Positions 1,660 to 52,000 of a stretch of 52,429 nucleotides of DNA are shown piece by piece. The notes under the pieces were generated by a model. The model did no database searches. It had not been told where the DNA came from and was given only the letters and a program-made list of their open reading frames with translations. Numbering within the stretch: position 1 is the first letter of the stretch; every line of letters begins with the position of its first letter. This DNA comes from Elsinoe ampelina (taxonomy: Eukaryota): assembly GCA_010093995.1 (NCBI GenBank), contig ML992501.1:1217047-1269475 (forward strand). The letters are read 5' to 3'. Made by a program: the position numbers and the translations under genes.

Positions 1660-4177
1660 TCATATCTCCTTCAAGAACCCAACCTCAATCAGCCTGTCCG
1701 CTGGCACTTCTAGATCCGCCATTTTTCCCCTCGTGTTCTCCCTAATCCAGAGGAAAGCCCACAGCAAGCCTGCTCTGAACCATCCCGTACCCTCCTTCGT
1801 CTTCATCTGGCCCTTGCCTAGAACATACAATGCACCGCCCGCAAATGCCTTGTCCAGCCTCGTCACCTCCTCCGCCGCCGTCGTCGATGCAGCTCCATAC
1901 TCAGTCACCCCATCTTTGCCCTCCCTCGACTCCACAAAGCCCCTGACCTGCTGATACAACACCGCCGCCAGATCCCCACTCACCACCACATCATTATACC
2001 CATGCCTCACCACCACCCTATAACAACCCGGAATCGCCAGCCTCGAAACACTATACCTCTCCTCCACCTCCACCCTCGGCCTCTCCAACGGCCTCAAATG
2101 AAAGAAAACCATCACCTCGGGCAACGCCGCCAACTTGAGCGCAAACTGGCTAAACACCGTCGGCGTCGTCTCGCCCGCCTTGTCAAAGAAAACCCCCATG
2201 CCCTTGATCTTCGACAACCCCGTCCCCTCAAACCTCTCCGTCAACTGCAGTCCCCCCTCCCCATCCGGCCTGATAAAATGCGACGTGGGAAACCGATCCT
2301 CCGCCTCAGCCAACCACTGACTCTCCTTCCCAAACCGCCATATCAAAAACACAACCGCGATCAACGCCGCCATGGCCAGCGTGAACCACGCCCCACGCGG
2401 CACCTTCTCCAGCGCAGAAGAGAGGTACGCGCCATCGTGGCACGCGAAGACCAACCAGGGCAGGAAGACGAGGTGGGGCGACATTTGCCAGACGAAAACC
2501 GCGGCGAGGGCGACCATGCAGGTGTCGAAGAAGGTGACGAACATGACGCACACGCCGTAGGCGTTGCCCAGGCTGGTCGTGTTGTTGTAGATGGAGGCGA
2601 CGAGGATGCAGCCGAGCATGAGGAGCCAGTTGGCAAGCGGGATGAAGAGTTGGCCGTGGAAGGTCGGGGAGGTGTGGATGATTTTGAGCTGGGGGATGTA
2701 GGAGAGTTTCATGGCTTGGGCGAGGAGCTGGGAGGGGGGGGCAGGTTAGTGATGGGTGGTTGGGGGAAGGGGGGACAGGGGGAGGAGACGTACTTGGAAG
2801 GTGGCCGTGATGATGGCTTGGGAGGCGACGATTGCGGCGAGGATGGCCATTACGAGCGACGGATAGAGCATGCCTGGGGGTACGGCGTTGAAGAACGGGT
2901 TGGAGTAAGCGTCAGGGTGTACGCTGATGTAGGCTGCTTGGCCGATGTATGCGAATAGGAGGCACGGGTAGGCGTAGCAGAGCCAGGAGAGCTGGATCGC
3001 TCGCCTGCTGAATGCGCCGAGGTCGGCGAAGAGGGCTTCGACTCCGGTGAAGGATAAGAGGACGCCGCCAAGTTGGCGCCAGCCTTGGTGACCATTGCGG
3101 ATGAGGAAGTCGAAGGCGTAATATGGGTTGAAGGCCTTGAAAACGCCGGCGTCAAACATGGCAATGTTGTAGATGCCGAAGGCGAGGTTGAAGGCCAGCC
3201 AGATGATGACGATGGGCGAAAATGCGAATGTCATCTTGGAAATGCCGAGTGGTTGAATCGCGAACAGGAGGACTAGGATAGCGTTGGTAACTCCGAGAAT
3301 CACTGGCTTGGTGATGGTGGGTTGGACGACCTGAATGCCTTGCACAGCACCTAGTACGGATTGAGCTGGTGTCAGGACGCCGTCTGCAATGACCATTGTG
3401 ACAGCCAAGATGCCCACCACTTGAAGTAGCTTCTTCACAAACTTGCTGTGCTCGATGCCTGAGCGGAGATGCTTCCCGCCGCTCTTTAGATCTCCAGTGT
3501 TCACACGCTTCATTTCGACCATGGTCGCTTCTCGTGGGTCTCGACGGGTGATGTTCAACTACCACGGTCAGCCCTGCCTACAAGTGGCCAGCTGAAACTT
3601 ACGTATCGACAGAGCAATGAGTATGTGCTGAAGCTGCCACCTTCTCCATCGTTGTCTGCGTGAAGGATGATGAGTACGTATTTGATCGTGACCATAATCG
3701 ACATGGACCAAATGATGAGCGACAGAACACCGAGCAGATTCTGCTTCGTCGGCGCTTCGCTGAAGGTGGAAGAGTAGACGTAGAGCGGAGAAGTTCCAAT
3801 ATCACCGTAGATGACACCGATCGACTGGTATGCCAGCCACACGAGATAGCGACCCTTGAATTCCTGGTTCATCTGTCAGGTATCCCCCTAACATGTGGAC
3901 TCTGACGTACTTGCTTGTGCCCAAAATCTCCTGGTGTCCTCAATCCTGGGTCCTCGTCTGCTAGATCACGGTCTCCATTCTGCTGACGGAGCACGAATGA
4001 AGGTCGGCTTGTGCGGCGCATATTGACCACGCCATCGTCTGTCAAAGTGGTGGCTGATCTGGCGAGAGGATGGTTCTCATAGATACTGCGCTCTTTGGGA
4101 TGATCTGCAACATCATCGTCCTGTCTTGAGGTCTTTGGTTGTTTCGAGTCGTCCGCGATGCGAATTGTCGTCATCAT
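1660..4177 (-). CDS. HAK1: HAK/KUP/KT family K+ transporter, ~786 aa (introns 2728-2793, 3559-3602, 3864-3910)
   Basis: Family motifs GVIYGDIGTSPLYV, DNDGEGG, DGVLTPAQSVL, FTGVEALFADLGAF, ASQAIITATFQ and LGNAYG. Three canonical introns restore a single frame. Confidence 0.93.
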
Positions 4178-12549: not shown

Positions 12550-15500
12550 TCACGTATTTTGCTCAGTCGTGGTGTTTGCCTCGAGCAATGCTTTCAGGTT
12601 GCCCAATGTCTTTTCCAGCACCTGACATGCACCTTTGCTTATGAGTGATATTCCGTCCCGCTTCTGCATCTCTGTCGGATCACCTGCTCTGCTTCTCCTG
12701 AGCATGTCTTCACCGTATTCGATTACCTTCTTCAGTAACGAACCTCCAGCACTTGTCACGTACGTCTTGCGAATGATATCTTCTAGTCCTTCTAGGCTCA
12801 GATCTTCTTTGGTTGAGAGGACAGAGGAGAGGGCATGCTCCAGGAATCCATGAGATTGGAGTAGTACTCGCTCGTTGTAAGCCACACTCTGTGTGTCGGT
12901 GCCCGGAATGTCTCGTTTGCCCTCGTATCCAGGTTCGTCTGGAGATGTCAGTCAAGCTCTTTCTCAGACAGATTTGACTTACTATAGAATGGCTCGGGCA
13001 CAAGAATCAGGGACTGAACGCTAATCAGCGCTTGCAGTAATGTGCTTTGTCCGGGTATCCAGCCTTCGGTCTCCTGCCCGGGCCAAGTATTGAGCAGACT
13101 GAGACACACGTTCCCATCTTCGTACAAGTTCGGGTTGATTTTGGTGTTTCTTGCAAAGCTGCCGGTGGTCCAATGATGGAAGTGAAATCGAGGTGGCTTC
13201 CTGGGGAAACCCTCTGGTAAGAGAATATCAAATACGAAAGGACACTCAGCGTATGGTGTGCCTGACGGGCCGATGATGAGAGCTCTGAGCAAGTTGCAGT
13301 GACTCTCCCATGATCGCACAAAGATACCTGCAGGCATGGACCCTTCACTGTTCAGTATCGCATGCTCTTTCATCACCTTCCGTAGCGTTTGATTGGCCAG
13401 TGTATCTTTCTCCTCATAGTAGCGATGTCCAACAGGGACGGTGCCATCGAGCAGAGCATATGCCGGGATACTCAATGTGCTTACCTCGACTTGGTTTGCT
13501 AATGTCGCTGTAGAGATGCTCATTTTGTCTCCAGATTCTCCATTCGCTTCATCATCCGTGCTCCAAGCACTGTCGTTGTCCATACTGGAGTCCATTGGCT
13601 GCCCGTCTACCAGGTACTCCACCGTTCCTTGACGGCCGCCCATCATGATCACACCGTCAGTCTTATCATTCTCCTCTTCCGAGTCAAGATCGAGATCCAT
13701 GTCATCTGTCGGATCAAAAATTGGATTACCATCCTCATCATATCCTTCTTGTTGCTCAATGAATTCTTTCTCAGCAACTCGTTCTGGGTCCAGAGCAAGG
13801 CTGATCTGATCGATGGAAGCTCGAACATTACGTGGTTGCTTAGAGAGCCCCAATCGAACTGTGTATGTGGCATCCATATGGTTTTCAATTACATGTCCAA
13901 GCCAGGCGTTAGGATCGGCAGGGCCTGATTCAATGTGGTAAGGCCCTGCAGCGTAAAAGACGCTATCAAGGAAGCCGATGTCGAGCCCGAAAGGAACAAC
14001 CAAGTCGTATATGCTCAAAGCTTCTACATCGTGCGCAAGCTGGCCAAATAGGTAGTCGGGCAAAGCCAAATATTCCTCCTTGGTGTCGAGATGGAGAGTC
14101 GGATTGCTGAACCATCGCACTCGAGCAATGCATTCATCCGCAATGACTGCTTGGACTACGCCGGCCTTTCTGGGAATCTTATGCCTACCGTCGGGGCTGA
14201 GATGAGTCTCCCGGGTGCAGACAATATCGCCTGGGTACAGGTCCTCTTCCGTGAAGTCAGCGTAGATGACATCTATGGCTCGTTCTTGTGTGATTGATCC
14301 GTTCTGCCACTGCACTCGAACCGAAGTCCGACTGTCCACGACTTCGAAGACGTTCATGTCATAGCCGAGATTGGAAGCGCGAGGCTGATCGAAGAGCCTC
14401 GAGCTGTCTGGAACATTGCCGTATTTGCCGCGCGCAGTTTCCACGTTGAGAAAACCAACTCGTGGGCCGCAGATCGCCCCAGTATCAGGATCACATGTGA
14501 ACTCCGTTGCGTTTGTGACCATTGACGGGTGAGCAGTGAAATGCTGCATGTCGTAGAACAAGTACTGTCCTGATTCGATTTCGTCCAGACCAATGACTTC
14601 CTCTGGGAAATCTTCTGGAGCAACAGACGAGATGTCAAGTGTCCTGTTAGATTGCCAGTCTACTGTCATCTCAATAGGACGGATCTCGACAACCACTCCC
14701 AGAGGTTCCGTGTTTGGATCATAGGCACCGAACAGCCAACGACCCAAGCGCAGATCAGACTTCTTGACGGCGACCAGATCACCGTGGTAAAAAGTGCTGT
14801 ATAGAGTCTGTGCTGCGGGCTTTGAGATCCTCACCTCCGGAGAAAGTGTGACGACGGTATTGTTCAACAGTCGCACAGTGACTTCGTCCAAAGTTGACCG
14901 GATGATACCAGCCCAGTCATGATACAAAACAGGATCACCAGTCTGGTGTTCGATCGGGGAACGCAAGTCGTAAAGATCGACACCAGGGATAAGGACAGGT
15001 GGTGATAGTCTTTCTACCCCAGCAACTGATGCTTGATTGACCGGAGCGACTTCATTACGCCCCCCATGTTCCATCCTGCTTGACAATGAGCCTGGGAGAC
15101 CACGACCGTTTCGCGTCGGTGTCTGACGTGCGTAGCCATTGGACTGATTCCCAGCTGCTTTGATCTCTTCCAACGTGTCAAAATGTGCTGGAATAGAAGG
15201 CCCATTGTCGCCGGACCGTATCAAGGAGGTTGTTTGTATGGTGCATTTCGTCTCCGCCTTGAGGACTGTGCCCCGCTGTTGGCCGTCACTAGCTTTGACC
15301 ACGAGATCGCCCACCAGCAATTGTCGATTGAGGAGCCTCAAAGTGCTGGAAGGGACCAATTCGGGGAATCGCTTCGTCTTCCATCGTACCAGAACGGTCT
15401 CAGGAGGAGGATGGAATTCTGATTGCTCCAATATCAGCCTCGCTGAGTGCAGCGCCGGGTGGTAAGTGACTATGGGATCTTCTTCGACGAATGTGGCGGC

Positions 15501-15587
15501 GAATTCATCGGAATCTGCGCTGGTGGCAAGGACATGACCTTTTGATGATGAGATTATGTCTTCGACCAGGTCCCAGACAGAAAACAT
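12550..15587 (-). CDS. UBE2O-like large E2/E3 hybrid ubiquitin-conjugating enzyme, ~997 aa (intron 12939-12982)
   Basis: C-terminal UBC domain: IIGPSGTPY, NPNLYEDGNVCLSLLNTWPG (catalytic Cys), and EPFYNEPGYE after splicing. Large N-terminal region with V.WQ.G motifs typical of the UBE2O family. Confidence 0.88.
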
Positions 15588-16013
15588 CTCGCTCGCATTC
15601 TGATGTGCTTCCAGTGTCGTGTCTTGCCAGGGCGTGGCGATGGTGGCGCCTGTCCCGTTAATAGTTCGAGGGTGAATCGCTCAGGTAGCAGCGATGGCGC
15701 GTGTGGCGAGTAAGTCTAGCTATGATAACGAGAGACTACAAACTCCGATAAGACTGGCGCGCGCTTGCGATTTTTCTGGCTAGGTGACACAAGTTCAAAG
15801 TGGTGGTCGAAGGCAGAAGTGCACGTGGAATTTGGGAAAGCTTCAAATGTTCCATTTGACTTTAGCATCTACTCCTCTCCCTTTCACTCGACATGCACAA
15901 CAACCCGCATGCCACGCGCCCTTGAAGCAGCCTCCGGTCGGGAAAGATAGCGACCTCTTCGTCGAAACCAGACTCGTAATTACGACTGAGATTCTGCGCA
16001 GACACCATTCACA

Positions 16014-17549
16014 ATGGCAGACTCCTTGCACGAGCTCCTCCTCCCCCACTTGACATCAACCACCTCCACCACTGTAGTCACCGATTCGACCAATCCTACT
16101 GTGCGATCCTATCTTGACAGGCTAACGACACTGTCATTGAGCCACCTGACCACCACCGAAGAGGCTTCAATCACACATACCTCGCAAACGAACTTCCGAT
16201 CCTTACAAGCGCTTTCCAAACGATCACATGGCTCCATTACTAGCGCTGCGGACCATCTCAACAATCTGCCGAATCTTTTTGAATCACTCCGTGATCAGAG
16301 CAAATCAATACAGAATTCCATGACAAGTGTAGAAGCATCAATCAACGACTTCGCCCAGAAGTATGAACGAAGCACGGAGAATGAGCTATTGGAAAGGCGG
16401 AAGACCGCGGCTCTCCTCAATCGAAACACTGAAAGAGTTGGAAACATCTTGGAGCTACCTACTTTGCTAGAAAGTACCGTGAATAGCTCTGCATCTTCTA
16501 CCGGAGCGGGTGCGACAGTCTCTGCTGGGGCCGGCTTGTCTGGCTATGCATCTGCGCTCGATATTCACGCACATGTCCGTCGGCTGAAGTCACTCTACCC
16601 GCAATCAGATCTGGTTGCAGGTGTCTCTGACCAAGCAGATTCGGAGATATCAAACATGATCACAGTACTCATTGCGACTTTGCAAAGTCCAGCGCTGAAG
16701 CTAGCTGTAGCTATGAGGACAATTGGGTGGTTACGAAGAGTCGCCCCTGACTTATCGAAGGTCAGTGCTGTGGGAACACCTGGTCAAGGATACGGGCAGA
16801 GCAACATTAGTCTTACGAATGTCAATGATGAAGGCGCACTGGGATCCCTCTTTCTGGTCTGTCGGTTGGCAACCCTGCGTCGAACACTGGAAGCACTTGA
16901 ACCTCTGAGACAACTGGCTGAGCAGGAGAGTACCAGTCGTCAATCTCTCGCAAGACAAAAGACTCCGGAGAGATGGTCCGGCGGCGTCCAGAGCGAAAGA
17001 TATTTGAAGAGGTTCATCGAGATCTTTCGAGAGCAGAGCTTCGCGATCGTCTCTATGTACAGGAGTATTTTCCCCACAGCTCTCCCTGTTCCTGGTTCAA
17101 GTCCTGCCGACAGAAGAGAGACAGGTCTGGATATCAGCAAAGCCAACGGGCAACAACTTCATGAAGCTTCGATATTCGACGCGAGAGCGTCTGCATTGGC
17201 AACCTTCGTCCCGGATCTGGTAGAAATGCTTCTCCATAATCTGCGCCAATTCTTACCCAACGTCTCCGAAAGGTCATCCCGGGACAGCTTATTGTCACAA
17301 GTTCTGTTCTGCGCAGGTTCGCTCGGAAGACTTGGAGCCGACTTCGGTCTATTCCTTGCTCTGCTCGAGGAGGATTTGCAGGATGTTGCAGAATTGGCGG
17401 GCGAGCCGGAGTGGGTGGACGCGATGAAGAAACACAGAGTTCAGGCCAGTCGCTTGGAAGTACTCGCAAGCGGAGTAGGGGCTGGTAGAAAAGGAAGTGC
17501 CCCATCTGTGGATTCCAGACCACAATCGCCTTCACTTGCAGCAAGATGA
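16014..17549 (+). CDS. COG8: Conserved oligomeric Golgi complex subunit 8 (Dor1 family), 511 aa
   Basis: Motifs ILELPTLL, YASALD, MRTIGWLRR, YLKRFIEIFREQSF and LLSQVLFCAGSLGRLGADF. Confidence 0.88.
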   Translation: MADSLHELLLPHLTSTTSTTVVTDSTNPTVRSYLDRLTTLSLSHLTTTEEASITHTSQTNFRSLQALSKRSHGSITSAADHLNNLPNLFESLRDQSKSIQNSMTSVEASINDFAQKYERSTENELLERRKTAALLNRNTERVGNILELPTLLESTVNSSASSTGAGATVSAGAGLSGYASALDIHAHVRRLKSLYPQSDLVAGVSDQADSEISNMITVLIATLQSPALKLAVAMRTIGWLRRVAPDLSKVSAVGTPGQGYGQSNISLTNVNDEGALGSLFLVCRLATLRRTLEALEPLRQLAEQESTSRQSLARQKTPERWSGGVQSERYLKRFIEIFREQSFAIVSMYRSIFPTALPVPGSSPADRRETGLDISKANGQQLHEASIFDARASALATFVPDLVEMLLHNLRQFLPNVSERSSRDSLLSQVLFCAGSLGRLGADFGLFLALLEEDLQDVAELAGEPEWVDAMKKHRVQASRLEVLASGVGAGRKGSAPSVDSRPQSPSLAAR

Positions 17550-17845
17550 CCGATAGCATGAGCAAAAGAGAAGTAGCAGTAGGAAGGACCAAGCATGACA
17601 GAGCCGTGTTCATCGCACCACTGACAAAGGTAAGTCGCGCGAAAGTAGGTCATTGCTCTTTCCTGCAACAATGTCCGTGGCGCCAAGTCGCATCCACCTC
17701 ACCCAATGACGCGGTATGGTCACGAAGAAACATGCGAGGGCGAGGATATCTTTTATCTGCTGATCACCAGTATTGTCCAAATTATTCCTCGGCACACTTG
17801 TATGACACAAGCGTCGGTGTTCAGTCCCGGCGATATTCTGCCGCT

Positions 17846-19766
17846 ATGCATGCGCTTATCAAGTCTGCATTAGTGACCTTGGCTCTACTTCTCCCTGCTG
17901 CAGGAGCACAAATCACTTCGCTCACGCCGCCGCCGCCGTGGGATATCCGCACCGGACCATACTCTTTCAGCGAGTATCACACTACAGACCTGCCTTGCCC
18001 GACAATACGAAGCACTTACGATTGCCCCGCGTGTGCCAATGGGCTCTTCTCGTTCATAACGCCGCGTGGCTATTCAATCTCAAGCCCTTCCGTTGCAATA
18101 TACGATGACCGCAGTCAGCTGGTATGGTTAAAGGAGACCGATGGACAGGCCTACGACTTGAAGGTGCAAGAGGTGGAAGGGCGACAATACCTAACATATT
18201 GGACCGGGGATGATCGAGTGCGTGGACATGGATCTGGAGAATGGGTTGTGCTGGACTCCAGCTACGAAGAACAAGGCAGAATTGGCGCCCTCAATGGTCT
18301 CACAGCCGATCTACACGAATTGGTCATTACTCCAGAAGGCACGGCACTGCTAACAGTGTACGAAGCCCGAAAAGTTCCGTCCCATGCAGTCGAAGAGAAT
18401 GAACGTGAGACTGTTCATATTTGGGATTGCTTGTTCCAGGAAATTGATCCGGTTCGGAACACATTGATCTTCCAGTGGAGAGCATCAGATCATTACAGCA
18501 TCAGCGACACTTTCCATGACCAACTGGATACTGGTACCGCCGACGACCCATTCGATTGGTTTCATATCAACAGTGTTCAGAAAGATGTTCTCGGCAACTA
18601 TCTCATTTCTGCGAGATATACACATTCGATCACTTACATCGAAGGAAAGACTGGCCGAGTGCTGTGGATACTTGGTGGTAAGCGCAATTACTTCAAGGAT
18701 CTCAGCGGCGGTGGTGCGGTAAACTTTGCATAGCAGCACGACGCACGATTGCACAGCCTTGAAGCATTTCCACAAACGATGCACGAGCTTGTTGAGGATC
18801 AATCCATGATGCTACACAAGCGGCAGAAGCAGCTGTTAACCTTATTCGACAATGGTGCGGAGGACTTTGTGCACGACCGGGAGTACTCCCGCGGTATGCT
18901 GCTGGAACTCAGCTATCCCGCGACTCGCGATTCCAGCCTGAATACACAAGAACGAAGTGGCTTGTCCCCAGACAGAGACTACACAGCACGTCTCGTTCGG
19001 ACCTATGTCCATACCGAAAACATATCCAGCAGCAGCCAAGGCTCGATGCAACTCATCGAATCACCCACGCTTGGCGAAGACCCTACGGTTCTGATCGGCT
19101 ATGGCTTCAATGCAGTCTAGACGACCTTTGACGCCAATGGCACCGTCCTCTGTGATTCTCGATTCGCCCCGGACGAAACATGGGAGACAGGTGATGTCCA
19201 GTCCTACCGCACCTTTCAAAATCGATGGATCGGCAGACCGAATACTGATCCTACAATCACGCTCTCTGCGAACTGCAGCGAGGACGCAATCTTTGTCAGC
19301 TGGAACGGTGCAACAGAGGTCAGACAATGGCTACTACAGACATCAATGAACCCTGACGGACAGCACTGGCTTCGTCGGACTTGGCGAGATATCATCTCTG
19401 TGGAGAGGGAAAGCTTCGAAACCAGGATCGACTTCGACGGGAGGATCGTCTTTCAGTGGCTCAGAGTTGTGGCTCTGGACCGCAATGGACATGTCGTCGG
19501 GACTTCGGCGCCATTGGACATCGGGCATGAAAGGGTACAATCCGCTTCTCATCGCTCTGAAGCACGTCGCTGACTTGTCACAGGCTAAGCATCTCCCCAA
19601 GCAAGCTGCTGTCACCGCCATACACACACACAAGCTTTTCATTTTCACGAACATCGTTATTCCTTGTCTTGCGCTCTTGGCCGTCGTCGGATGCTTTCTC
19701 ACTAGCTGCATTCGACTCTTCAAGAGGGGCCAGTACCAGAATGGTCCGTTGCTTAGGGCATACTAA
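17846..19766 (+). CDS. Fungal arylsulfotransferase (ASST)-family protein, ~623 aa if read through; two in-frame TAG codons (18731-18733, 19118-19120); intron 19535-19583. Either an editing-dependent gene or a young pseudogene
   Basis: Signal peptide MHALIKSALVTLALLLPAAGA. Motifs TPRG, YLTYW, DLHEL, FQEID, FHINSV, NYLISAR, WILGG, FA*QHDAR, LFDN, SQGS, GYG, SYR, VSWNGATEV and FET. C-terminal TM helix after a GTACAA..CTGAC..CAG intron. Confidence 0.88.
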
Positions 19767-20121
19767 GGAAACCATGCCATGAATAGGGAGGTTTAATGGG
19801 CGGGAACGAGGCAGAGTACGGCAAGTGTATTCTGCACCAAGTAGGTTACACTTCAGCAGGAGATCACTTGTATTCAATCACGATCATCTGTACCCTCCAT
19901 TTCAACCGCACGCAAGATCCCCAAAGAAGAGCAAAGAAAGACAGAAGCACTCCCATTCGCCAAACAGAGTCTATGTGAATAAGCAGCCCGGAACGCCAAA
20001 CCGTACTCCAACAAGCAGCCCAACTCTTCCCTTACCAGACCCAATCTCCACTCCAGCCAATCCAAGCGTATCCCGGCTTCCCGCCTCAGCTCCAACCTCA
20101 CTCCCCCCTCTCCAGCTCACT

Positions 20122-22699: not shown

Positions 22700-25600
22700 T
22701 CAGAACTGTATCTCCCCAAAATCAAACTCCTCACTCTCCATCTCCCCCTCTCCACCACACACCATCCCCTCCATCCCCGCCTGCGCCGCCATCTCAGTAT
22801 TCAAATCCTTCAAACGTCCCATATAATCCACCTCATCCGCCCTCCCCTTGCCCTTCCCTTCCGCCCCTCTCCATGCCCCTTGCTCCTGCCCCTCTCTCGA
22901 CGAAGCCATCACCGGCCCCTCCATCATCTCCGCATTCAACCACTGCATCGGATCCAGCTCCTCCTGTTCCTGCGCCGAAGCCGTCGCGAACCCCGCGGGA
23001 AAAGGGTCAAACATGCACACGTCCCCCGTCATGGGGGTGTGGAGCATATGGGTACCGCTACTGGGCGTCTGGGTGCCGGTGGCTGTAGCGCTGAGGTCCA
23101 TGCCGGACATGCCAAAGTCGGACATCATCTGGTCGAGTTCTTCGGGCGTCAACTCCCCGGAACCTGGTCCCGAGCCGAGGTCTTGAACGGTGGGTATGCC
23201 ATAGGGGGTGTTGTCTTGGTTTTGGGAGGACGAAGCAGCGACTTCTTCCGCGATGCGTTGCCATTGCTCTTCTTCATCCGGGGTGAGGGAGCTGCCTTCT
23301 TGCGCGAGACTCCATTGCGCGGCGGTCATGTTGGCGGTCTGGCAGCCGACGTCGCGCGCGAGGATGGGGTTGTTGGTGCGGGTCGCGAAGTGGGCGGCGC
23401 GGGCGGCGGGGATGGGCATTTCGTCGTAGGATTTGTAGGTCTTTTCGTAGGCGGAGAGGCCGTTGCGTTGGGCGTGGGACCAGAGGCGGAGGCGTTCTTC
23501 CGGGGTGCCAGCAGGGACGGGACACGGTACGCGGGCGGCGATGGATGGGTTTGCAGCGGAGGTGGGAGAGCCGGTATGGGGAGAGGTGAGGGCCTTTTGG
23601 GCGATGATGAAGGGGACGCACATGCCGAGGTCGCCGTAGAGCTCGAGGTCTTCGGGCACTACGTTACCCACTCCGCCGAAGGTGGTAGGGATGATGTCGA
23701 GACCGTGAGCTTTCTTGAAGAGGTCTAGCCATTCCGGATTGTCCGCGGCGGTCTGATTCCACGGATCTTCGGACTCGTAGACGATCTTTCTTGCCTGGTT
23801 CTGGATCATGTCATCCGTCACCACTTGACCAGCGTCGGCCTGTGCTTTGACGAATTGGCCGAGCTCAATGGTTAAAATCTCCCAACACGTGGCTCGGGTT
23901 GCATCTCTGCCGCCACTAGTCGCGAGGCCACAAGTGTTGGTCCACTCACTTGAAGGCCATCCCTCTGGATCATCGGGCGCAGCACCTGGCATCGGCGTTT
24001 GACGGTGTGAGAAATTACCTCTACTGGCACTGAAGGGAATGGGTGAGTCTCGCTCCATTCCTATCAGATATGGTGGCATGGCGTTTAGCACGTTCGCAGC
24101 GACGTTTGGGTCGAGGCCACGACAGCGCTTCCAGTCCCGCATATGAGCGCCCTCGCGGAAGTGTGCTGCGAGGTGATCGTTGCGCTCCATCCATGATGTG
24201 AAGCGGGCATCGCAGAAACCACACCGAGATTTGATGAAGTCGGCAGATGCCTTCCACGACTCCATGTTGGGTTGCATAGTAGTGTGGTGCATGGGCCTGA
24301 GATGCTGTCTTAAGTGGTCTTTCCGGTAAAATGTGCGCGCTTCCAGACCTTTGGATTCGCATTCGCTGTGTCCGTGGGTATCAATGTGTGCTCTTGATGG
24401 GTTTTCTTCTCTGCAGTAGACGCAGGTCTTGATACCAGTGTGAGGGTCAGTGACGACAGGTCCGAGTGGTGCACATATCCACTTCTCCAGAGACAAGTGC
24501 AGTGTCTTTTCGTGGCGAGTCCAGTCATATTTGGTCTTGAACGTGTCACAGCAGAATGTGCATTGGAAGATGCGCTTCTTGTCATCTGCCGGGTCTTTCC
24601 TCAAAGGAGCTCTGACCTTCCTTTTGCGCCGACGATCACGCTTGCCATGCAGACCGGAGCCGAATGAGTTGTAGGATCCGTAAGATCCTGATGATCCATG
24701 AGACCAGGCGATGGAGCTGGTAGTGCCTGACCGCGAGTTACTTGACTCCCGCCCTGTCTCTTGCGAGGTGACGGATTGTGCCGGCTTTGAGAGTGATGCA
24801 CTGCCAGACCCGCGCTCGACGGACTGGTCGAAGGTTGATGCGGAAAGCGGTCGTGGTAGGATACTCGAGGATTTGTTGACGGCATCTGCGATAGCCTCCA
24901 TAGGAGCCGGTTCGTTCTCGGGGGGCGAATGTTGCCAACGTTCGAAGGGATTAAGCTGGCACGGTCAACCCGAAACTTCTATGATGCAACTACAGGTACT
25001 TACGTCGCGCCACTCTTTGGCCATGGTTGCTGCTGGGACGGTGATAGGTTGGCTAGCAGTGAAAGATGAGTTGGTAGACAGGCTACGGCGGTTGCTTGGG
25101 CCTGGCGAGTAAGCCCGTCGAGTGCTCTTCCCAACCTTTGACCGACGCCGGTAGTTGGCGAGCCAGGTGGTGATCTGGTTGGACTTGAGACCAGTCTTCT
25201 TCTCCAGCTCTATCTTCTCCTCATCGGTAGGGTAAGGATGATCCTGATTCTCGTCGACCCAGTCTCTCATGACCTTTACGGCGGCACGGGAGAATCGGAC
25301 AGCAGACTTCTTGCCGTCTTTCCCATCATCTGAGGTAGGTGCTGGCGCACCAGTCTTGGAGCGAAGCGTGCGTGTACCTGTGTAGGCGCCACGCTCAGTG
25401 CAGACGTCCTCTTGGACAGTGTGTAATGTGTCGACATGTTGGACATACTTGCCAGTGGCATTGACAGCATCAACCCCAGTATCCTTGCGGGAAATGCTTG
25501 CGAAACTGCAAGGTCTGAAAAGGGAATTGCATGAAGTACATGTGATCTTGCCAAAGTACATGAAGCAATCTAGGCCCTTTGAGCGACAATACTCGCATGG

Positions 25601-25933
25601 CTGATCCGGCTTGACGAAGGTAGGGATCCAGTTCTCGAAGTTGGCATAGTCCTCGGCGTCTCTTTCGACGGTGTTGAATGATTTGTACAGGTCGTTCATG
25701 CCACGCAGGCCAGTTATGCAGGTGCAGCTGTAGTAGGTTAGTGTTTGACCTGTTAGCTCACTAGTCGAAACTCACGCTCCAGCATTGTCGACGGACGGAC
25801 ATCCTGCTACGTGTGGTAGATTGGAGAGTGCTTGAGCAGTAGGACTGTCTGCAGACTGTTGCAATTCCTGAGTGAGCAAGTGTTCAAGATCATGCTCGAG
25901 TGAGGGGTTGACGCCAATGTCCCCAGACGACAT
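22700..25933 (-). CDS. Fungal homeobox plus C2H2 zinc-finger transcription factor, ~1045 aa (introns 24956-25003, 25728-25775)
   Basis: TALE-like homeodomain (HPYPT..WLANYRRR), C2H2 fingers (FQCTFCCDTFKTKYDWTRHEKTLH; CGFC..HLAAHF), N-terminal six-Cys cluster, and LNPFERWQHSPPENE after splicing. Confidence 0.9.
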
Positions 25934-39185: not shown

Positions 39186-42100
39186 TCAGTGGATTCCCGC
39201 CTTTGCATAATCCGCCTGCAATGTCTTCAGGTCTTCCGGCACATCCCACCCGTGAGTTCTGCATGCCCGCTTGTATGCCTCTATCGCCTCATGGACCCCG
39301 TAATCACTCGTGTGAGCCACACCACCATGGTTGTTTGTCGACATCATCAGACGAGCAGGTGGCTCGGTTGTCCCGATCGCGAGACGGATCTGCATCAACA
39401 CGGCGTCAATGGTGCTGACGCTGGTCCAGCCTGTGTTGGTGAGCAGCTCCATACAGAGTGCGCCGCCGATGGTGACATGTCCACCGCCGCCCTCTCTGAA
39501 GCCGAGGAAACGAGGGCGGATGATCCGGACAAAAGGTGGTTGGAAGGGATAGTTGGGACCGAATCGGATCTCAAACACGATCGAAGTGATCTTGGCTCGA
39601 TCCATGTCTCCAGCAAGAAGGATAGGTTGCCCGTTGGGCTGGACGAAGTTGTCAAATGAGTGCATCTCAACGATCCACTGGTACATATTCTCAATCTTGT
39701 CGGGGTCAATGTACCAACCGAGCTCGTGGGCAGGAGTGGACTGTTGCAGCTTAAGGAGCGTTTTGAAGTCGTTCTGAAGGCGCTTGGAATTGACAACGCT
39801 GGCATAAGTCGGCTCTGGCATCTGTGGGAGAGTCGAAAAGTCGAGTTGACCTGGACGGTACTTGGTCATGGCGAACAGATCGATCTTACTATCATTCCTC
39901 TGAGCTCCCAGTGTCGGCGACGGCTCGTCGTCAATCTCGATAACGTCGACCATATCGATCAATGCCTGCTGGTCCTCATCATCCGTGGCCACACTGGAAC
40001 GATCGTCGTCGTCAAGGTCCATCGGATCATCGCGGGTACCCGAGCCTCTGAGCGACTTCTTCACCATAGCCTTTGCGCTGCTCGACCTTGGACTCTTCCG
40101 CTTCCTGGGAGTGGCACCTGTCGCGAGCACTTTGGTGGCACTCTTGGGCAGCTCCAGCGCGCCTTCATTACCCTTTGGGAACATGGAAGGATCCAAGGGT
40201 AAAGGGTCATCGATCGTGGCCTCGATTTCAAGTAGGAAAGTTGTTGTCGATTTGACCTTGACAAATAGGTAGCGTGTCTGAATCCAGTCCAGGTTGGCAA
40301 TGACCAGGTGTGGTTGCGCCTTCACATACTCATCAGGAGCGTTAACAAGCTCGTTGAGAGAGAGGGCGGTGGTAATCTGCAAGATGGACGATGGCCAGTC
40401 GACGCCCCCCGGCGTAATACCACCATAACTGTGATAGCTCTGACAGTATCCAAGAGACGTCTGAAGCTCTTGAGAATGGTATACACCATCTCCGAAAGCC
40501 CGACCATTGAGCACATTCTTGAAGTGTAGCCCTTCACGGATGATTGAGTGCCAATTGCCGATGCGACTTCCATGCCAAGCAAAGATGGTTGGGAATCTGG
40601 AGTTGCGTCGTTGGGAGGTGCTGCGGACTTGCTGTAGGAATCGTTGCTCCTTATCCGGTGCACCCATGGCGAAGCGGAACTGCATCCAGCCCTTCATTCC
40701 CTTGACTCTTTCCTCCTTCTCGTACTCTCCTTCCGAATGCTTGGTCATGTAGGCCGGTATGTCCTGGCCATCACTGCCAGGTGGTGCTAGTTCGTCTACC
40801 TGAACAATGCAGGCCCTGTTTGACGCGACGATCCAGCGAAGGACAGAGGCAGCGGAGGGAGATATGCGATCGATCCAAGTGCCCAACCTTTTGTTGCCGG
40901 ACTGTTGGATGTACTGCTGCATCTCATTGACGTTGGGTAATGTATCGAGTAGAAACTTGATGGCACCTCGCTTGTTCTGATCGTCAAGAGTGTCTATGTC
41001 GACATCGTATTTCTGGACGAAAACATCGACCCATCCTTCTGCCGCCATCAAGGTTGGCGTGGTGTCTGCTTGTGGTGCATTCGGCCTGTAGGCGGGAGCG
41101 ATTCTTGGGTCGGGGGCATCTTGAGGAGTGATTGCGACACTGACGGGCTGGCCGACTTTGATAGTCGGGTAATATGTGGTCTCCGCGATGCGAAAATGTA
41201 GAGGGCGCGCAAGGCCTTGTTCAGGCCGGCAGACGACCCAATCGCCTGGGACGAATGGACAGGCAACGCTGGCATCGTCGAGGAGCATCTCCAACGTCAT
41301 CTGGTCGATCTTGGCTTTGTGCTCATGACTACCACGACCATCGTTCGAGTTCTTCCCAATCTTAGTGAGGTTTCCCGTATTGAAGTCGGTGAACGAGAAC
41401 GGGACTGTGATCGCCAATCCCACGGGAAAGTTCTTGAGAACACCATTCGCAGCGCTGCTGTAGCAGAATGAGATGAGCAGATCGATGACCAGTGGTTGAG
41501 TGATGATCTCGTGATCAATGCTTGGACCGAAGCCGAGACTCATATACTGGTAAAGGCACAGCGGATTGTCGCAGACGTACGGCTTGAGTGCTTCGATCTC
41601 ACTCGGTAGGGTCCGGTGACAGATCAAGCAAAATTCTGTGCAGCGGACAAAGTGGCGGAGCGCGAATTGCATAGCGACAAGTGGGAAAGATACAGACTTG
41701 TGGACGGATTTCGTGGTTGCCATGTGATCGGCCATCACGATGTCGGGAAATGCTTTGTGATCGCCACACTCGCCGATGCGCTTGTACTGGTCATAGCGGA
41801 GATCGTCGTGAGGTCGACCTTGGACATCGTTGTAGAACTGCTCAGCTCCAGCCCAAGTCAAGCCTTCGTCGCGGTACATCATGAGTTTGGCAAGTCGCTC
41901 GCCGACTAGGGTATTGATTGTACTTGAGATGAAAGTGTCGCGAGAATGCTGCTTGACACCAGTCCCAGCCTGGTCTTCCATATCCTTCTGCGTCATGACG
42001 AAAGTGTTGATAGCTTCTTGTTGAGAGGGCTTGTAGGTATCGCAGACCCTGAGTCGCACTTCAAACATGTTGCGCTTGCTTTGTTTGATGTCATCTGCAT

Positions 42101-42841
42101 TCCGATAGCCGTTGGGATAGCGTATGAGCAATGTGAGGTATTCATTTGGCCGCAGCTGCCACGCCTTCATGGCCTCTTGCGATATACCAAGCTTCTTGAC
42201 CTTGCAAGAGATGCTGATGATGCCGGGCGTGTTCTGAGTGAATATGTGACCGATGATGCCAACACGGAAACCAGCTTCCTTCACTGCGCGGAGGTCTTGT
42301 CTAATCTTGTTGGCGACGGGGGCGGGCATCGGTAGTCCAGAAGATGTGCGCCGGCCCTGGTCGTGAATAGGAGCATTGACATACTCTTCATCCGGATCCC
42401 AGGCTGATGCGTCGTCGGCATCGTCATTATCGTCCTCGGATTGCAAGTCGGAGTCCTGAGTATCCGAGTCGACTTTGTTCAAGGCGGTGCGGATGCATTG
42501 GAAAAGCTCTTGTATCGATTTCGAGGCTGTGCTTGGGAGGTGATCCTGCAAGACTTGCCCAACATGATTTGGAGTGTCGTCACTTGTGTATATCATGTAT
42601 TCATGGCGACTGGGGTAATCCGAGAGTTCTGTCAAGCATGATCAGCTCAGTCGGTCAAGTACAGCAGCTGCAAGTCACCATTGATCATGACATTCACGGT
42701 AGCTGGCTGGTCAAGCTTGTCGTGAGTTATGACGAATGTGAAAGTTCCGTCATCTTCACCTCGCTGCAGGTCGTAGATGTCGCCATTGGTGCTGGACGCT
42801 TGCGCAGACTCCAGATCCTGGATGAATTTCTTGCGAGGCAT
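39186..42841 (-). CDS. Fungal PARP/ART catalytic domain plus UBE2Q-like ubiquitin-conjugating domain fusion, ~1201 aa (intron 42629-42678)
   Basis: Cys cluster CTEFCLICH..PYVCDNPLCLYQY; ART motifs AWHGS..WHSIIREGL and GRAFGDGVY; E2 motif YPFQPPFVRIIRPRF..GGALCMELL. Confidence 0.88.
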
Positions 42842-47805: not shown

Positions 47806-48130
47806 TGTCACGAAGCCTTGTCGACTTGTAGTGTGAGCTACCGGCCATTTCACGCTGTCAGATCATGGATGCTGTGATGTGGGACGAGGATGGAGGGAAA
47901 GAAGATGCCCGCCGTCGTCGGCAAAAGCTGCCACTCACCGGCTACAGCTTCATGTTCGACAAACTGATCGCCAGGCGGCGGTCGACCTTGTTGTAATGGA
48001 AGGCTGGTACAGCTTCTCTGGTACTGAAGAACTGGTACTGATGAGTCAGCGCACGCACAGTAGATAAATCGGTTATTGTAACTCTCTGAATGAAACACAC
48101 GTCTCTCGATCCGATTTGCTAGTTATAACA
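47806..48130 (+). repeat. Putative 5' LTR (~325 bp) of the copia element
   Basis: Begins TGTCACGA and ends TTATAACA (TCGTGACA after three transitions), immediately before the PBS. Candidate TSD is TCATG (47801-47805). The 3' LTR is outside the window, so the left boundary is inferred. Confidence 0.55.
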
Positions 48131-48150
48131 GGTTATAAGCCCGGCGCTTC
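48131..48150 (+). other. Primer-binding site complementary to the anticodon arm of tRNA-iMet (half-tRNA priming type)
   Basis: GGTTATAAGCCCGGCGCTTC equals GGTTATGAGCCC.. with one TpG->TpA change, and is complementary to tRNA-iMet GGGCTCATAACC. Confidence 0.7.
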
Positions 48151-48705
48151 TATAAAAGCACTTAAAGCTGTAGTAAATTAAGCGTGTTATTATCAAAAGG
48201 ATTACTAAGCCGCCTATACTGAATTCTAGACTAGCTACATTAAGACAAACACTTATAGTAGCCCGCATTAACCCTTTAATTAAACGGTTTAAACGGCTTA
48301 AACAAGCTAATTACATTAATTAAATCAATAGGCCTTTAGCTAATTACTATTATTATATCTAGATTAGTAAAAATGCTCGAGACTTAGATTCTTAAGAGAG
48401 GAAGTAACTATAATACTTAGAGATTAACCCTTAAGGTAGCCCTCCTTAAAAAGGATATACTTAGATATACAATTTATAACATCGACTAGATACTAGTAGT
48501 TATAAAGCCTAAAGAACTAGCCCTAGATGCTAGTAAAGGCACTAAGGCAATCTATAAGGTTAGGAATAAGACCTAGTATAAGAATAATAGAATTGCTTAT
48601 AGTGTTATTATAATAAGGATTTATAAATCTATTAGACCTTACTATAGTATAACTTAGAAGACTTTAAAGGAACTTCTAGACACTATTAAAGCTATATTTA
48701 AACCT

Positions 48706-49025
48706 NNNNNNNNNNNNNNNNNNNNNNNNNNNNNNNNNNNNNNNNNNNNNNNNNNNNNNNNNNNNNNNNNNNNNNNNNNNNNNNNNNNNNNNNNNNNNNN
48801 NNNNNNNNNNNNNNNNNNNNNNNNNNNNNNNNNNNNNNNNNNNNNNNNNNNNNNNNNNNNNNNNNNNNNNNNNNNNNNNNNNNNNNNNNNNNNNNNNNNN
48901 NNNNNNNNNNNNNNNNNNNNNNNNNNNNNNNNNNNNNNNNNNNNNNNNNNNNNNNNNNNNNNNNNNNNNNNNNNNNNNNNNNNNNNNNNNNNNNNNNNNN
49001 NNNNNNNNNNNNNNNNNNNNNNNNN
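48706..49025. other. Assembly gap (320 N) inside the retrotransposon gag region
   Basis: Run of N. Confidence 1.
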
Positions 49026-52000
49026 TACTTATTATGTCTACTCTAATATAGATTACTTTAAGTAGCACCCTAAGAAAGTACTAAAGAGTTAAAGCAAAAG
49101 AGATAATAAAGACAGGTTAAATAATAAAGGTATAAAGGCTAAAGGTAAAAGTAACAAGTCAAAGACTAAGAAAGTTAGAGGTTAAGCAGCTATTAAAGAA
49201 TCTAGAGAACCTACTAAGGTAGGTAAATTAGATAAACGCTCTAACACTAATATTAATATTATTATACTAGTCTATAGGGTAGTAGCAGTGTCTATATTAT
49301 TATCCTTAACCTATAGTAAGAATAGAGCAATCTATAACTCTAGTGTATTAAGGCACTTTATTAAAGACAGGTTATAGTTCTTAATAATTAAGGTATATAA
49401 AGGTGTTCTTAAATTTAAATAAGCTATTAGCACAAAGAAGCTACTTAATACAGAAGTAAACATAGTTAGGCTTACCCTAACTAATAGCAAAGGCAAGAAG
49501 TTAATTATTAAGCTTTATAATTGTATATACTTACTATTATTACTAAATACCCTTATATCTAATCTTTAGAATAAAGAGGAACTTAGTATCTCTATAGTTA
49601 GCAAATCCTTAATAAAGGATAGAAAGGAAGTTAGCCTTATTAAACACTTTAAAAGAGTTAAATAGCTTAAGAACTTTAAAGTATATAAGCCTTAGGACTA
49701 TAAGGAATTACCTACAAGGCTAAAACCATAGAAGCTATAGGCTATAAGAGCAAATCTGGCTATTATAACCACTTAAAAGCTAATATTAGAAAGATAGTAC
49801 TAGAGGTTAAGCTATGCTAGTAACACTATTCTCTCTCTTACTAAAAGTTAAGCTATTAGATTAGAAGAACTTCAAATATTAGATCTTAGCTACTGTAAAC
49901 TATATGCTATATTAAAGATATAGAGAGTAGTATTAAGAGAACTAAGAGATGCGCTAAAGTGCTTACTAGATAAACTCTATCTAGACCTTATTAGTCCTAT
50001 TAAACTATAGTCAAGTAAGGGCTATAGATATCTTCTCTTTATAACATATAGTAAAAGTAAGTACAAGTTTGTTACTATTCTCTTCCTTAAGAGTAATACA
50101 CTAGTAGTAATTAAACTTATCTATATAAGGAACAAAATAGCCTATAACAAGCTTTTATTTATCTTTATCTCTAATAGAGGGGGTAAATTTAAGAACTATA
50201 AACTAGCAATAGCTATTTATCTTAAAGGGTAGAGATAGAACATCTCTACACCTAATACTTAATACTAAAATAGTAAATCTAAGGCTACTAACAAAGTAGT
50301 TATTCTTAGAACAAGGTGTATCTTTATTAATTATAGAGCACCCCTTAAACTCTAGTATATAGTTATAGAGTTTATAATCTATATTAGTAACAGGATTACC
50401 TACACTAAAACTAAGAAGATCCCTATATAAGAGCTAAGAAAGGATCTTCTTAATAATAATAGGCTAGTCTTATTAACTTACATTAGACGCTTCGGCTATA
50501 GAGCCTATATCTATAACTAACATATTTCTAAATTACACAAATTCTAAGCTAAAGCACTACTTAGTTAGCATATTAGCATATAGAACAACTTAACAACTAA
50601 TTACCTTATCTAGATACTCTATTAGTATTATACTTAGCAAGCCTAGAAGGGAAAGATTATTATATTACCCTATGTAACATTTAATAAGAATATAGTCTAT
50701 AAAGACTAAGTAACACAAGTTATTAAATAGCTATATATCCTATAGGTATAACAACCTAAGGCTTTATAGCTTTAGGGGGAGCAGACATTCAGTAGTAATT
50801 ATAATCAAGGCTATAGCTATAACTAACTACCCTTTAGTTATAAGAATCTATAAACTACTTAGGCTAAACAACCTTAAGTTAAACAACTAACATCTAACTA
50901 CCCTTCTATCCCTAGATATAAACAACAATTATCTACCTCTATTAAAGAATAGAAGGAGTAATACTAACATCCTAAACTAGATCCTTAACCTGTTAATAAA
51001 TAGGGGGAGCAACTTAATGTTACTAATTATAAAGGTGAAGACCTTATAACACTACTACCTAAAGTTATTAGTGAACTATATTTAACCTTTAATCCTATAG
51101 TTGATGTTAATTAACTACTAATATATATATAGAATAAGAATGTTAACTTCCTTATTACACTATTTAATATATAACCTCTAACTAGTAAAAGGAAGAGATC
51201 TCTCTTACTATAAGAAACTATTAGAAGGTCCCTTAAAACACATCGCTAGATTAATTATAAGAAACTTAACAATAGTAAGATTATTAGATCTATAGCTATT
51301 AATTTCAAGCTAGACCTACAAATAGTAAGAGATGTACTATCCTCTCCTAAAGGTTATTACTAGTAAGCTATAATAGAGGTAGAGTAGAAGGCTCTAACTA
51401 ACTCTAAAACCTTTTTAATTATTAAGAAATCTTAGGCACTAAGAGGTATTAGGCTAATAACAGGCAAATAGGTCTTTAAGACTAAGAGGCTTACTAATAG
51501 CAAAGTTAAAAGATATAAGGCTCGTTAGACTATAAGGGGCTTTACTTAAAGAGCAGGTATTAACTTTGTTAGAACCTTTATACTAATACTAAGAGCTAAA
51601 ACTAGGAGAGTAATCCTTATATATGCTCTTTATTATAACTAGGTTATTATAATAGTAGATGTAGTTACTACATTCCTTAGACTAGACATTAATATTAAGA
51701 ACTATATCTCCTACCTAGAAGGTATACTAATTCCTAGCAAACAGAATAAGCTTATTGTTCTTATAAAGGGCTTATATAGGCTTAAGTAAGCTACTACTCT
51801 CTAGTATAACGCTATAGTTAAGGCACTTCTATTACTTAGTTTTATTAGATCCTATAGTAATGCCTATCTCTTTATTAACAAGTATTACATAGTTCTTATA
51901 TATATTAATAACTTTAGGATTATTACTACTAGGTAGAAGTATATAGATAAGCTAGTTAAAGATCTTTATCTTAAGTTTCTAATAAAGATTATAAACTTAA

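Follow-up and report, generated by a model that had tools for sequence, protein, structure and literature searches.

A transcribed arylsulfate-sulfotransferase-family gene of Elsinoe ampelina with two in-frame TAG codons is probably a young nonsense pseudogene

In a 52,429-nt stretch of Elsinoe ampelina DNA, hereafter the window, whose coordinates are used throughout, we found a gene of the arylsulfate sulfotransferase family that is interrupted by two in-frame TAG codons. We favor, with some reserve, the view that this gene is a young, still-transcribed nonsense pseudogene that was inactivated very recently. An earlier note, made from the DNA letters, had proposed that both UAGs are conditionally edited from A to I, yielding UIG (Trp) and a full-length enzyme in one stage only. 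We regard this as a possible but rather unlikely alternative.

The reading frame extends from the ATG at 17846 to the TAA ending at 19766. Its 623 codons show no indel and a single intron of 49 nt, and the frame is interrupted only at 18731 and 19118 (Table 1), exactly as the earlier note had read it. The intron, which that note had placed in frame, was found spliced out in RNA contigs from two runs and carries a CTGAC branch-like site 12 nt upstream of its AG. We counted 15 intact TGG codons, in line with the estimate of about fifteen, and the downstream motifs described as preserved (LFDN, SQGS, SYR, SWNGATEV, and FET) did fall on invariant or nearly invariant columns. At the N-terminus, where a signal peptide is probable, the AF2 model gave a helix at residues 2-14 followed by a low-confidence stretch. 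In exon 2, a hydrophobic stretch at ~19635-19712 probably acts as a membrane anchor, and this tail is conserved in the alignment of Elsinoe orthologues. The guess that the host might be a Eurotiomycete or black yeast did not hold: over the aligned parts, the public E. ampelina protein shows 100% identity, and the taxonomy is Dothideomycetes, Myriangiales. E. ampelina is the grapevine anthracnose fungus.

Table 1. Features of the sulfotransferase-family gene and its upstream neighbor (window coordinates)
Feature	Position	Strand	Basis
COG8/Dor1, 511 aa, upstream neighbor; rate calibrator and synteny marker	16014..17549	+	PF04124
Exon 1, codons 1-563	17846..19534	+	Frame open apart from the two TAGs; RNA contigs 17750-18286, 18398-18548, 18655-19533
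Probable signal peptide, residues 1-21, MHALIKSALVTLALLLPAAGA	17846..17908	+	By eye from the sequence
Public-model "intron", 51 nt, covers TAG1	18714..18764	+	P0003 against the window; RNA contig continuous; no CTRAC branch site
F-A-(TAG)-Q-H-D-A-R motif	18725..18748	+	Homologue alignment; PDB alignment ("sfawqhd" in 9kf6)
TAG1, codon 296	18731..18733	+	Letters unchanged in DNA contig and spliced RNA contig
Public-model "intron", 78 nt, covers no stop	18835..18912	+	P0003 against the window; unspliced in RNA contig
Public-model "intron", 72 nt, covers TAG2	19115..19186	+	P0003 against the window; unspliced in RNA contig
TAG2, codon 425	19118..19120	+	Letters unchanged in DNA and RNA contigs
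Sole real intron, 49 nt, GT..AG	19535..19583	+	Joint in RNA contigs, runs X3 and X4
Exon 2, tail with hydrophobic stretch, stop TAA 19764-19766	19584..19766	+	RNA contig extends to 19844

When both stops were read through, the translation matched PF14269 (Arylsulfotran_2) over residues 106-440 (E 7e-40, 137.7 bits against a cut-off of 27) and PF05935 (44.2 bits against 24.2). A PDB search aligned it with Cpz4 (E 1e-48, 28% identity), including the FAWQHD motif. The AF2 model (pLDDT 83.7, pTM 0.84) showed the beta-propeller fold of solved ASSTs, with Foldseek matches to 9kf6 (E 1e-38, TM 0.72/0.89) and 3elq (E 7e-10). Judged from its sequence, the read-through product is a member of the Cpz4-like arylsulfate sulfotransferase family. 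It has in common with the Streptomyces sulfotransferase Cpz4 (PDB 9kf4/9kf6) and the E. coli arylsulfate sulfotransferase (3elq) the fold and both Pfam families; it differs from them as a predicted fungal secreted or anchored form, and as one that is stopped twice. Three active-site His residues have been described in ASSTs. Among 20 homologues, H128, H157, H216, H240, and H260 were invariant and H298 nearly so; F294, Q297, H298, D299, and A300 were also nearly invariant, and the F-A-W-Q-H-D-A-R motif is conserved in Cpz4 as well. An active enzyme needs an uninterrupted coding sequence, and here two in-frame TAGs were present in both DNA and mRNA.

The earlier note had placed both stops at Trp positions. 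Among 59 homologues, the column of site 1 (codon 296) held W in 48, Y in 5, S in 4, and F in 1, the one gap being E. batatas; that of site 2 (codon 425) held W in 36, F in 15, Y in 6, I in 1, and M in 1. Both residues were W in all four other Elsinoe/Sphaceloma orthologues, and Tyr was found at site 2 of E. batatas. The claim thus stood within the genus, but family-wide site 2 is merely aromatic or hydrophobic. It speaks for editing that the gene, otherwise undamaged, has UAG in both places and that these are Trp codons at the level of the genus. In metagenome contigs, the site-1 motif gave 93 matches in its TGG form and none in its exact TAG form, so TAG at site 1 is not a recurrent natural state; this counts against editing and supports a pseudogene. 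Among the best 120 of 146 proteins with E <= 1e-20, there was no second-strain or truncated Elsinoe model.

Both TAGs were present in contigs assembled from sequencing runs; the earlier note had asked for a check in raw DNA reads. A DNA contig of depth 160, from a run that is possibly the source sample of the assembly and hence not independent, had TAG at both places and no difference over 2101 bases. A spliced RNA contig of 1141 nt (run X3, record 5; no run in the sequence listing is recorded as RNA) corresponded to 18655-19533 joined to 19583-19844, without any other letter or gap. As TAG was thus obtained at both places from DNA and from a spliced RNA contig sequenced separately, errors of assembly do not account for the stops. 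It is therefore most improbable that they are sequencing or assembly mistakes over a true TGG, the more so as the public annotators also routed their model around both stops.

The same contig bears on editing. It was the sole RNA contig to span both sites (X3, depth ~6, stage not on record), and it had A at 18732 and at 19119. With no differences and no gaps, it indicates that in this sample both UAGs were unedited and the in-frame "introns" of the public model unspliced. The RNA contigs also showed that the gene is transcribed at a low level and that its real intron is spliced. Three further runs with the same species label (X5-X7) shared almost no short words with the window, X5 giving no aligned contig, which says nothing about expression. 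An mRNA that keeps its disabling lesions, with no bypass seen in the X3 contig, is what a young nonsense pseudogene would give, and neither reads nor contigs showed editing. Yet the support from RNA is this one low-depth contig, contigs lose minor variants, and the RNA run is possibly from the genome's own strain. According to the relevant papers, fungal PSC editing is specific to the sexual stage or to stress, and unedited transcripts of Fusarium PSC genes also occur in hyphae. Because minor variants are lost and editing of this kind is stage specific, the X3 contig does not refute it; and since the Fusarium genes are also transcribed unedited, an unedited contig would be expected even if editing took place.

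The public E. ampelina model (P0003, 527 aa) contains three in-frame "introns" that were absent from the splicing of the RNA contig. If the stops are young, this model is an artefact in which conserved coding sequence was spliced away to hide them. A possibility was that these units reflect a bypass without editing, either by readthrough of UAG or by occasional in-frame splicing ("exitrons") giving a shortened protein without FAWQHDAR. TAG1 is followed by C (UAG-CAG), and a UAG-C context is leaky for translational readthrough. In addition, the segments 18714-18764 and 19115-19186 each form a GT..AG unit in frame. As a precedent, FgBUD14 has a PSC-bearing intron that is both edited and spliced. 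Against such a bypass, all three units were unspliced in the RNA contig, they lack the GTRNGT/CTRAC signals of the real introns of the window, and their splicing would remove a nearly invariant motif; two successive readthroughs would presumably give a negligible yield. We consider this explanation improbable.

A hint came from E. batatas, which was compared by its protein model alone. This public model omits the identical 17 residues, with boundaries equal to those of the 51-nt pseudo-intron of E. ampelina, and the Tyr codon at its site 2 differs from TAG by one step but from TGG by two. The identical skip would fit a bypass; together with the Tyr, it forms a single hint in favor of editing and counts against a pseudogene. 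If TAG1 were shared with E. batatas by descent, the pseudogene reading would fail. On the other hand, E. batatas carries D285G, S287H, and G289A at conserved columns directly upstream of the skipped segment, and in the alignment this looks like local relaxation of the motif rather than its maintenance, which argues against editing.

We then come to the constraint on the gene since the split from E. batatas. Differences between the two species affected 5 of 134 conserved columns versus 76 of 471 variable ones (Fisher 7.6e-5), and downstream of TAG1 only, 2 of 56 versus 42 of 260 (p 0.01). The p-distance ratio d(amp,bat)/d(amp,faw) was 0.363 for the sulfotransferase gene and 0.311 for the neighboring COG8, for which BLASTP listed identities of 92% with E. 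batatas and 75% with E. fawcettii. Polarisable derived residues numbered 8 in E. ampelina versus 16 in E. batatas, 57 others being ambiguous. E. ampelina deviated at 6 of 140 conserved columns, and the intact Elsinoe orthologues at 5-13 of 135-143. In the Elsinoe alignment, the E. ampelina gene thus showed no sign of relaxed constraint, be it excess substitutions, indels, or conserved-column changes. These comparisons point clearly to purifying selection on the gene, both upstream and downstream of TAG1, through almost the whole period since E. ampelina and E. batatas diverged. As the gene shows no decay, the stops must be either very young or bypassed. An old shared pseudogene, dead before the E. 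batatas split, is ruled out by the rate and the distribution of differences. The constraint itself cuts both ways: selection on both sides of TAG1 speaks for editing and counts against a pseudogene, which is tenable only with very recent stops, whereas the lack of excess change in the E. ampelina lineage fits lesions too young for decay.

How likely is it that two random lesions would both be of this kind? With two of two lesions being TGG>TAG and no other stop or indel in 623 codons, simple ts/tv models gave a probability of 0.006-0.024 that both would be TGG>TAG, given two nonsense mutations, and this counts against a pseudogene. The same chance rises to ~0.15, that is (17/44) squared, when only RIP-type CpA>TpA changes are counted. 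One transition at TpG/CpA suffices to turn TGG into TAG. The end of the window (48001-52429) has a strong RIP signature (TpA/ApT 1.86, (CpA+TpG)/(ApC+GpT) 0.40, GC 27%), so CpA>TpA mutagenesis has acted in the E. ampelina lineage. Both the type of change and the RIP-marked window end support a pseudogene. The gene itself does not look RIP-mutated: its indices (TpA/ApT 0.54, composite (CpA+TpG)/(ApC+GpT) 1.30) are like those of the rest of the window. RIP leakage as the direct cause of the stops is ruled out by these normal indices and by the 28 kb to the nearest AT-rich block. Collectively, the gene resembles the loss-of-function alleles and ordinary young nonsense pseudogenes of fungal pathogens in its single-transition stops, its retained transcription, its multi-copy family, and the RIP-marked DNA in the window; it differs from RIP-type stops in lacking a RIP signature of its own and any excess of G>A, which accounted for 2 of 8 derived substitutions in E. 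ampelina.

The rest of the window gave no trace of a correcting machinery. A scan of 22 large ORFs yielded no deaminase domain, and the window contains no tRNA gene. Both results argue for a pseudogene and against editing; a suppressor tRNA in the window is thereby ruled out. We also scanned the window for other in-frame stops with at least 100 open codons on each side. TAG 550(-) and TAG 27971(+) were rejected as further interrupted genes, the frames looking non-coding, as was TAA 2748(-), which sits within a canonical intron of a K+ transporter gene. There was no second TAG-interrupted gene in the window, and only ~0.1 would be expected even with editing.

As to what is known of editing in fungi, the papers document mRNA A-to-I editing only in Sordariomycetes and in Pyronema, one Pezizomycete. 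According to the same sources, editing was not found in A. nidulans (Eurotiomycete) or B. cinerea (Leotiomycete), the single species tested per class, and the Ame1-Tad3 interaction of the Tad2-Tad3-Ame1 machinery arose within Sordariomycetes. In the literature searched and read, we found no report of such editing in Dothideomycetes. The proviso of the earlier note, that the fungus might lie outside the classes with documented editing, therefore applies to E. ampelina. All this weighs against editing and supports a pseudogene. It should nonetheless be noted that, according to reviews, the classes with editing are still to be determined and pseudothecial fungi are so far unexamined.

The context of the two sites was in part favorable to editing. 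The preferred U at -1, to which the earlier note had drawn attention, was present at both TAGs, as was G at +1, and A occupies +3 at site 1; these features count against a pseudogene. Site 2, however, carries a C there, outside the preferred A/G of +1 and +3. A hairpin loop is likewise part of the preferred context. Both TAGs lay in predicted hairpin loops with flanks of 20 and 30 nt, TAG1 not with 40 nt, but this did not discriminate since 5 of the 7 UAG triplets of the transcript lay in predicted loops.

Two known systems offer a comparison. An in-frame UAG at a mostly-Trp codon in an otherwise intact gene is what marks PSC pseudogenes, and the E. ampelina gene has it. It resembles those of Fusarium and Neurospora in being intact, conserved, and transcribed apart from its UAGs, and in its U at -1 and G at +1. 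Two sites are also possible there: 6 of 71 PSC pseudogenes of F. graminearum carry two, and the TAGs derive mainly from TGG, a precedent that favors editing. Unlike them, the E. ampelina gene shows no A-to-G in the spanning contig and its host is a Dothideomycete; moreover, its enzyme family is not known to have a sexual function. The second system is OLD-ZAO, a Neurospora antiviral module in which an OTT_1508-like deaminase corrects a UAG in the adjacent zao transcription-factor gene. The module occurs beyond Sordariomycetes, Dothideomycetes being absent from the lineages listed there. A UAG-to-UIG change used as an on-switch outside the sexual stage would match the proposed reading, but the OLD-ZAO target is a zinc-finger gene beside the deaminase, whereas here it is a sulfotransferase homologue with no deaminase in the 22 ORFs scanned.

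Spelled out, editing would call for a Tad2/Tad3-type or OLD-type deaminase acting in a sexual or sclerotial stage or in a stress or virus response, and for a TAG1 older than the E. ampelina-E. batatas split. Elsinoe would then have restorative UAG-to-UIG editing, TAG1 would have been kept under selection, and site 2 would either have gained its stop in E. ampelina or have become fixed as Tyr in E. batatas. We hold this scenario to be doubtful.

The pseudogene that we favor would have a simpler history. It would start from an arylsulfate-sulfotransferase-family gene that is conserved in Dothideomycetes and has its E. ampelina orthologue here; the intact product would resemble Cpz4 and combine a beta-propeller with a signal peptide and an anchor at the C-terminus. 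A pair of very recent G-to-A transitions, each turning TGG into TAG, would have inactivated it. Transcription would continue at a low level, with the real intron spliced and both UAGs kept in the mRNA, and translation would end at codon 296, so that the FAWQHDAR motif, the anchor, and the greater part of the propeller would be missing. We infer that the stops are not bypassed, that they arose after the split from E. batatas, and that the product of 295 residues has no activity.

The locus is a cheap and sharp probe: it offers two defined adenosines in a transcribed gene that is under selection and untranslatable as written. It bears on an issue left open in reviews, namely, which classes edit mRNA besides Sordariomycetes and one Pezizomycete. 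If the editing reading were true, the gene would be the first "pseudogene" outside Sordariomycetes that depends on editing, which would suggest either that fungal mRNA editing originated independently a third time or that OLD-type deaminases reach more widely. If the stops are merely young, the result is an ordinary one: a crop pathogen that has recently lost a gene.

The arylsulfate-sulfotransferase-family (ASST) gene of Elsinoe ampelina ran in one frame from the ATG at 17846 to the TAA at 19764-19766, with zero frameshifts. This bore out the earlier note, which had described a single frame without indels and the TAGs at 18731 and 19118 (TAG1 and TAG2) as the only lesions. The read-through translation, whose first exon is 562 residues long, matched Pfam Arylsulfotran_2 (E 7e-40) as well as Arylsulfotrans, and aligned to Cpz4, a Streptomyces sulfotransferase of solved structure (9kf6; E 1e-48), the FAWQHD motif being kept. 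Its predicted fold was a propeller (pLDDT 83.7, pTM 0.84), which Foldseek matched to 9kf6 (E 1e-38, TM 0.72/0.89) and also to E. coli ASST 3elq. Judging from the sequence, a signal peptide seems to stand at the N-terminus, and the tail encoded by exon 2 may form a hydrophobic anchor.

Features of the ASST locus and of other genes in the window
Feature	Position	Strand	Remark
TAG1	18731-18733	+	in-frame stop, codon 296
TAG2	19118-19120	+	in-frame stop, codon 425
Sole ASST intron	19535-19583 (49 nt)	+	RNA splice
P0003 in-frame "intron"	18714-18764 (51 nt)		hides TAG1; unspliced in X3 RNA contig
P0003 in-frame "intron"	18835-18912 (78 nt)		hides no stop; unspliced in X3 RNA contig
P0003 in-frame "intron"	19115-19186 (72 nt)		hides TAG2; unspliced in X3 RNA contig
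P0003 long last intron	19448-19583		donor 19448 replaces 19535; unused in X3 RNA contig
COG8	16014-17549		neighbour of ASST gene (17846-19766); locus-tag synteny
HAK-type K+ transporter gene	1663-3558	-	
Homeobox_KN ORF and 754-aa ORF with Tc5-type HTH	22703-25771	-	same frame, one TGA (24965-24967) between
UQ_con ORF	12951-15680	-	large ORF, ubiquitin-conjugating domain
UQ_con ORF	39189-42641	-	large ORF, ubiquitin-conjugating domain

Both stops were present in DNA and in mRNA. A 50.3-kb contig (depth 160) from DNA run X2, possibly the assembly's own source, was identical at all 2101 compared bases of the locus. Run X3 gave three contigs there, one of which (1141 nt) corresponded to 18655-19533 joined to 19583-19844, with no other letters and no gaps. 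Because it joins 19533 to 19583, this contig originates from spliced RNA; the gene is therefore transcribed, with both UAGs in the mRNA as A. The same splice appeared in a contig from run X4, which carries another organism label. An artefact would be a scarcely credible account of the stops. The X3 contig also conflicted at four places with P0003, the public 527-aa model, whose in-frame "introns" and long last intron were thus unused in this RNA. These pseudo-introns lacked signals of the GTACGT/CTAAC type, as present in a real intron of the window, and as one of the three internal ones conceals no stop, spurious in-frame introns do occur in these annotations. No A-to-G change was seen at TAG1 or TAG2 in the X3 contig (depth ~6, from a run without stage record, maybe of the genome's own strain); at this depth, and since minor variants are lost in contigs, low-level or stage-specific editing could have gone unseen.

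The top database matches were Elsinoe proteins: P0003 was 100% identical to the read-through across the aligned parts, and the E. batatas model P0002 was 86% identical in a 20-sequence alignment. COG8/Dor1 lies immediately upstream, and locus tags indicated the same adjacency in E. australis, Sphaceloma murrayae, Dothideomycetes sp. NU459 and Neodothiora populina, so the gene is an old, syntenic orthologue. In E. batatas the two tags are ~800 apart, on a same-size contig, which suggests rearrangement or non-positional tags. A second X2 contig matched 18548-18603 (56 nt, DPFDWFHINS region) with 8 differences, and thus reflects a diverged paralogue elsewhere in the genome.

The gene showed no decay. 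Deviations at columns at least 90% conserved numbered 6/140 in E. ampelina, 7/134 in E. batatas and 5-13/135-143 in intact Elsinoe orthologues. Of the derived changes, 8 fell to ampelina and 16 to batatas, while 57 were ambiguous; ampelina was the slower lineage (Tajima test, p 0.10). Identity between the two was uniform, at 87.2% upstream of TAG1, 85.6% between the stops, and 85.4% and 88.5% past TAG2. Their differences fell at 5/134 conserved versus 76/471 variable columns (Fisher 7.6e-5), a depletion ratio of 0.23 versus 0.10-0.18 for intact-orthologue pairs; past TAG1 alone, the counts were 2/56 versus 42/260 (p 0.01). Divided by the distance to E. fawcettii, the E. batatas distance was 0.363 for ASST and 0.311 for COG8. 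Even identity, avoidance of conserved columns and a COG8-like relative distance ruled out death of the gene before the ampelina-batatas split. Hence the stops are of very recent origin, or they are bypassed. The likeliest reading, which we favour at somewhat better than even, is a nonsense pseudogene or loss-of-function allele that arose very recently and is still transcribed.

Among 59 aligned homologues, site 1 carried W (48 sequences), Y (5), S (4) or F (1), with a gap in E. batatas, and site 2 carried W (36), F (15), Y (6), I (1) or M (1); Cpz4 has W and Y, respectively. The Trp positions proposed earlier thus held for the four of four other Elsinoe/Sphaceloma orthologues, with W at both sites, but less so across the family at site 2. 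In metagenome contigs, the site-1 motif had 93 matches when written with TGG and 0 when written with TAG. With the TAGs reset to TGG, 17 of 225 single-base routes to a stop are TGG>TAG; the probability that two of two stops are of this type is 0.006-0.024, depending on transition weight, or ~0.15 if RIP-type CpA>TpA is the sole change type. RIP-type mutagenesis did act nearby: 48001-52429 has a classical signature (GC 27%, TpA/ApT 1.86, (CpA+TpG)/(ApC+GpT) 0.40). This AT-rich block (GC 12-35% per 500 nt) begins abruptly past 48000 and extends to the window end. The ASST gene bore no such signature (TpA/ApT 0.54, composite index 1.30, as in the remaining window), nor any G>A excess among its polarisable derived substitutions (2/8).

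The window contained no second TAG-broken gene and no tRNA gene, and no deaminase domain was found among its 22 large ORFs scanned. The HAK-type K+ transporter gene is unbroken, since its in-frame TAA (2746-2748) lies within a canonical intron (GTACGT...CACTAAC...CAG). The TGA between the Homeobox_KN and Tc5-type ORFs probably marks an intron, or separates two exons of one gene. One UQ_con ORF is UBE2O-like and the other carries an additional PARP catalytic domain.

Conditional UAG-to-UIG restoration was weighed against known editing. Passages of PMC11156358, PMC10041177 and PMC11087585 document sexual-stage A-to-I mRNA editing by Tad2-Tad3-Ame1 in Sordariomycetes and editing, probably independent, in Pyronema; among them are also statements that none was found in Aspergillus nidulans and Botrytis cinerea, and that the Ame1-Tad3 interaction arose within Sordariomycetes. 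E. ampelina belongs to the Dothideomycetes (order Myriangiales), not to the Eurotiomycetes as had been guessed, and the passages on Dothideomycetes covered by the analysis do not report A-to-I editing there; a passage of PMC7306014 names pseudothecial fungi as untested. According to passages of PMC10776026, F. graminearum has 71 pseudogenes with premature stop codons (PSC pseudogenes), 6 with two sites, their TAGs mostly TGG-derived; at some PSC sites, stops were also noted in further classes, for which the presence of editing was called "yet to be determined". Both ASST sites have G at +1 and, in line with the preference put forward in the earlier note, U at -1; +3 is the preferred A at site 1 and C at site 2. 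Predicted hairpin-loop placement was not discriminating.

P0002 lacks exactly 17 residues, equivalent to GAVNFAWQHDARLHSLE, with boundaries identical to those of the pseudo-intron hiding TAG1 in the ampelina model; at site 2 it has Tyr, which a single base change separates from TAG and two changes from TGG. Should this skip conceal TAG1 as well, the observed constraint would call for a bypass. Three substitutions at conserved columns immediately before it (D285G, S287H and G289A) speak against this and resemble either relaxation confined to that stretch or an independent lesion. The E. batatas hint, the all-TGG>TAG pattern and the persistent constraint keep restoration of the ASST mRNA viable, although we consider it unlikely; other bypasses of the stops seem more doubtful still.
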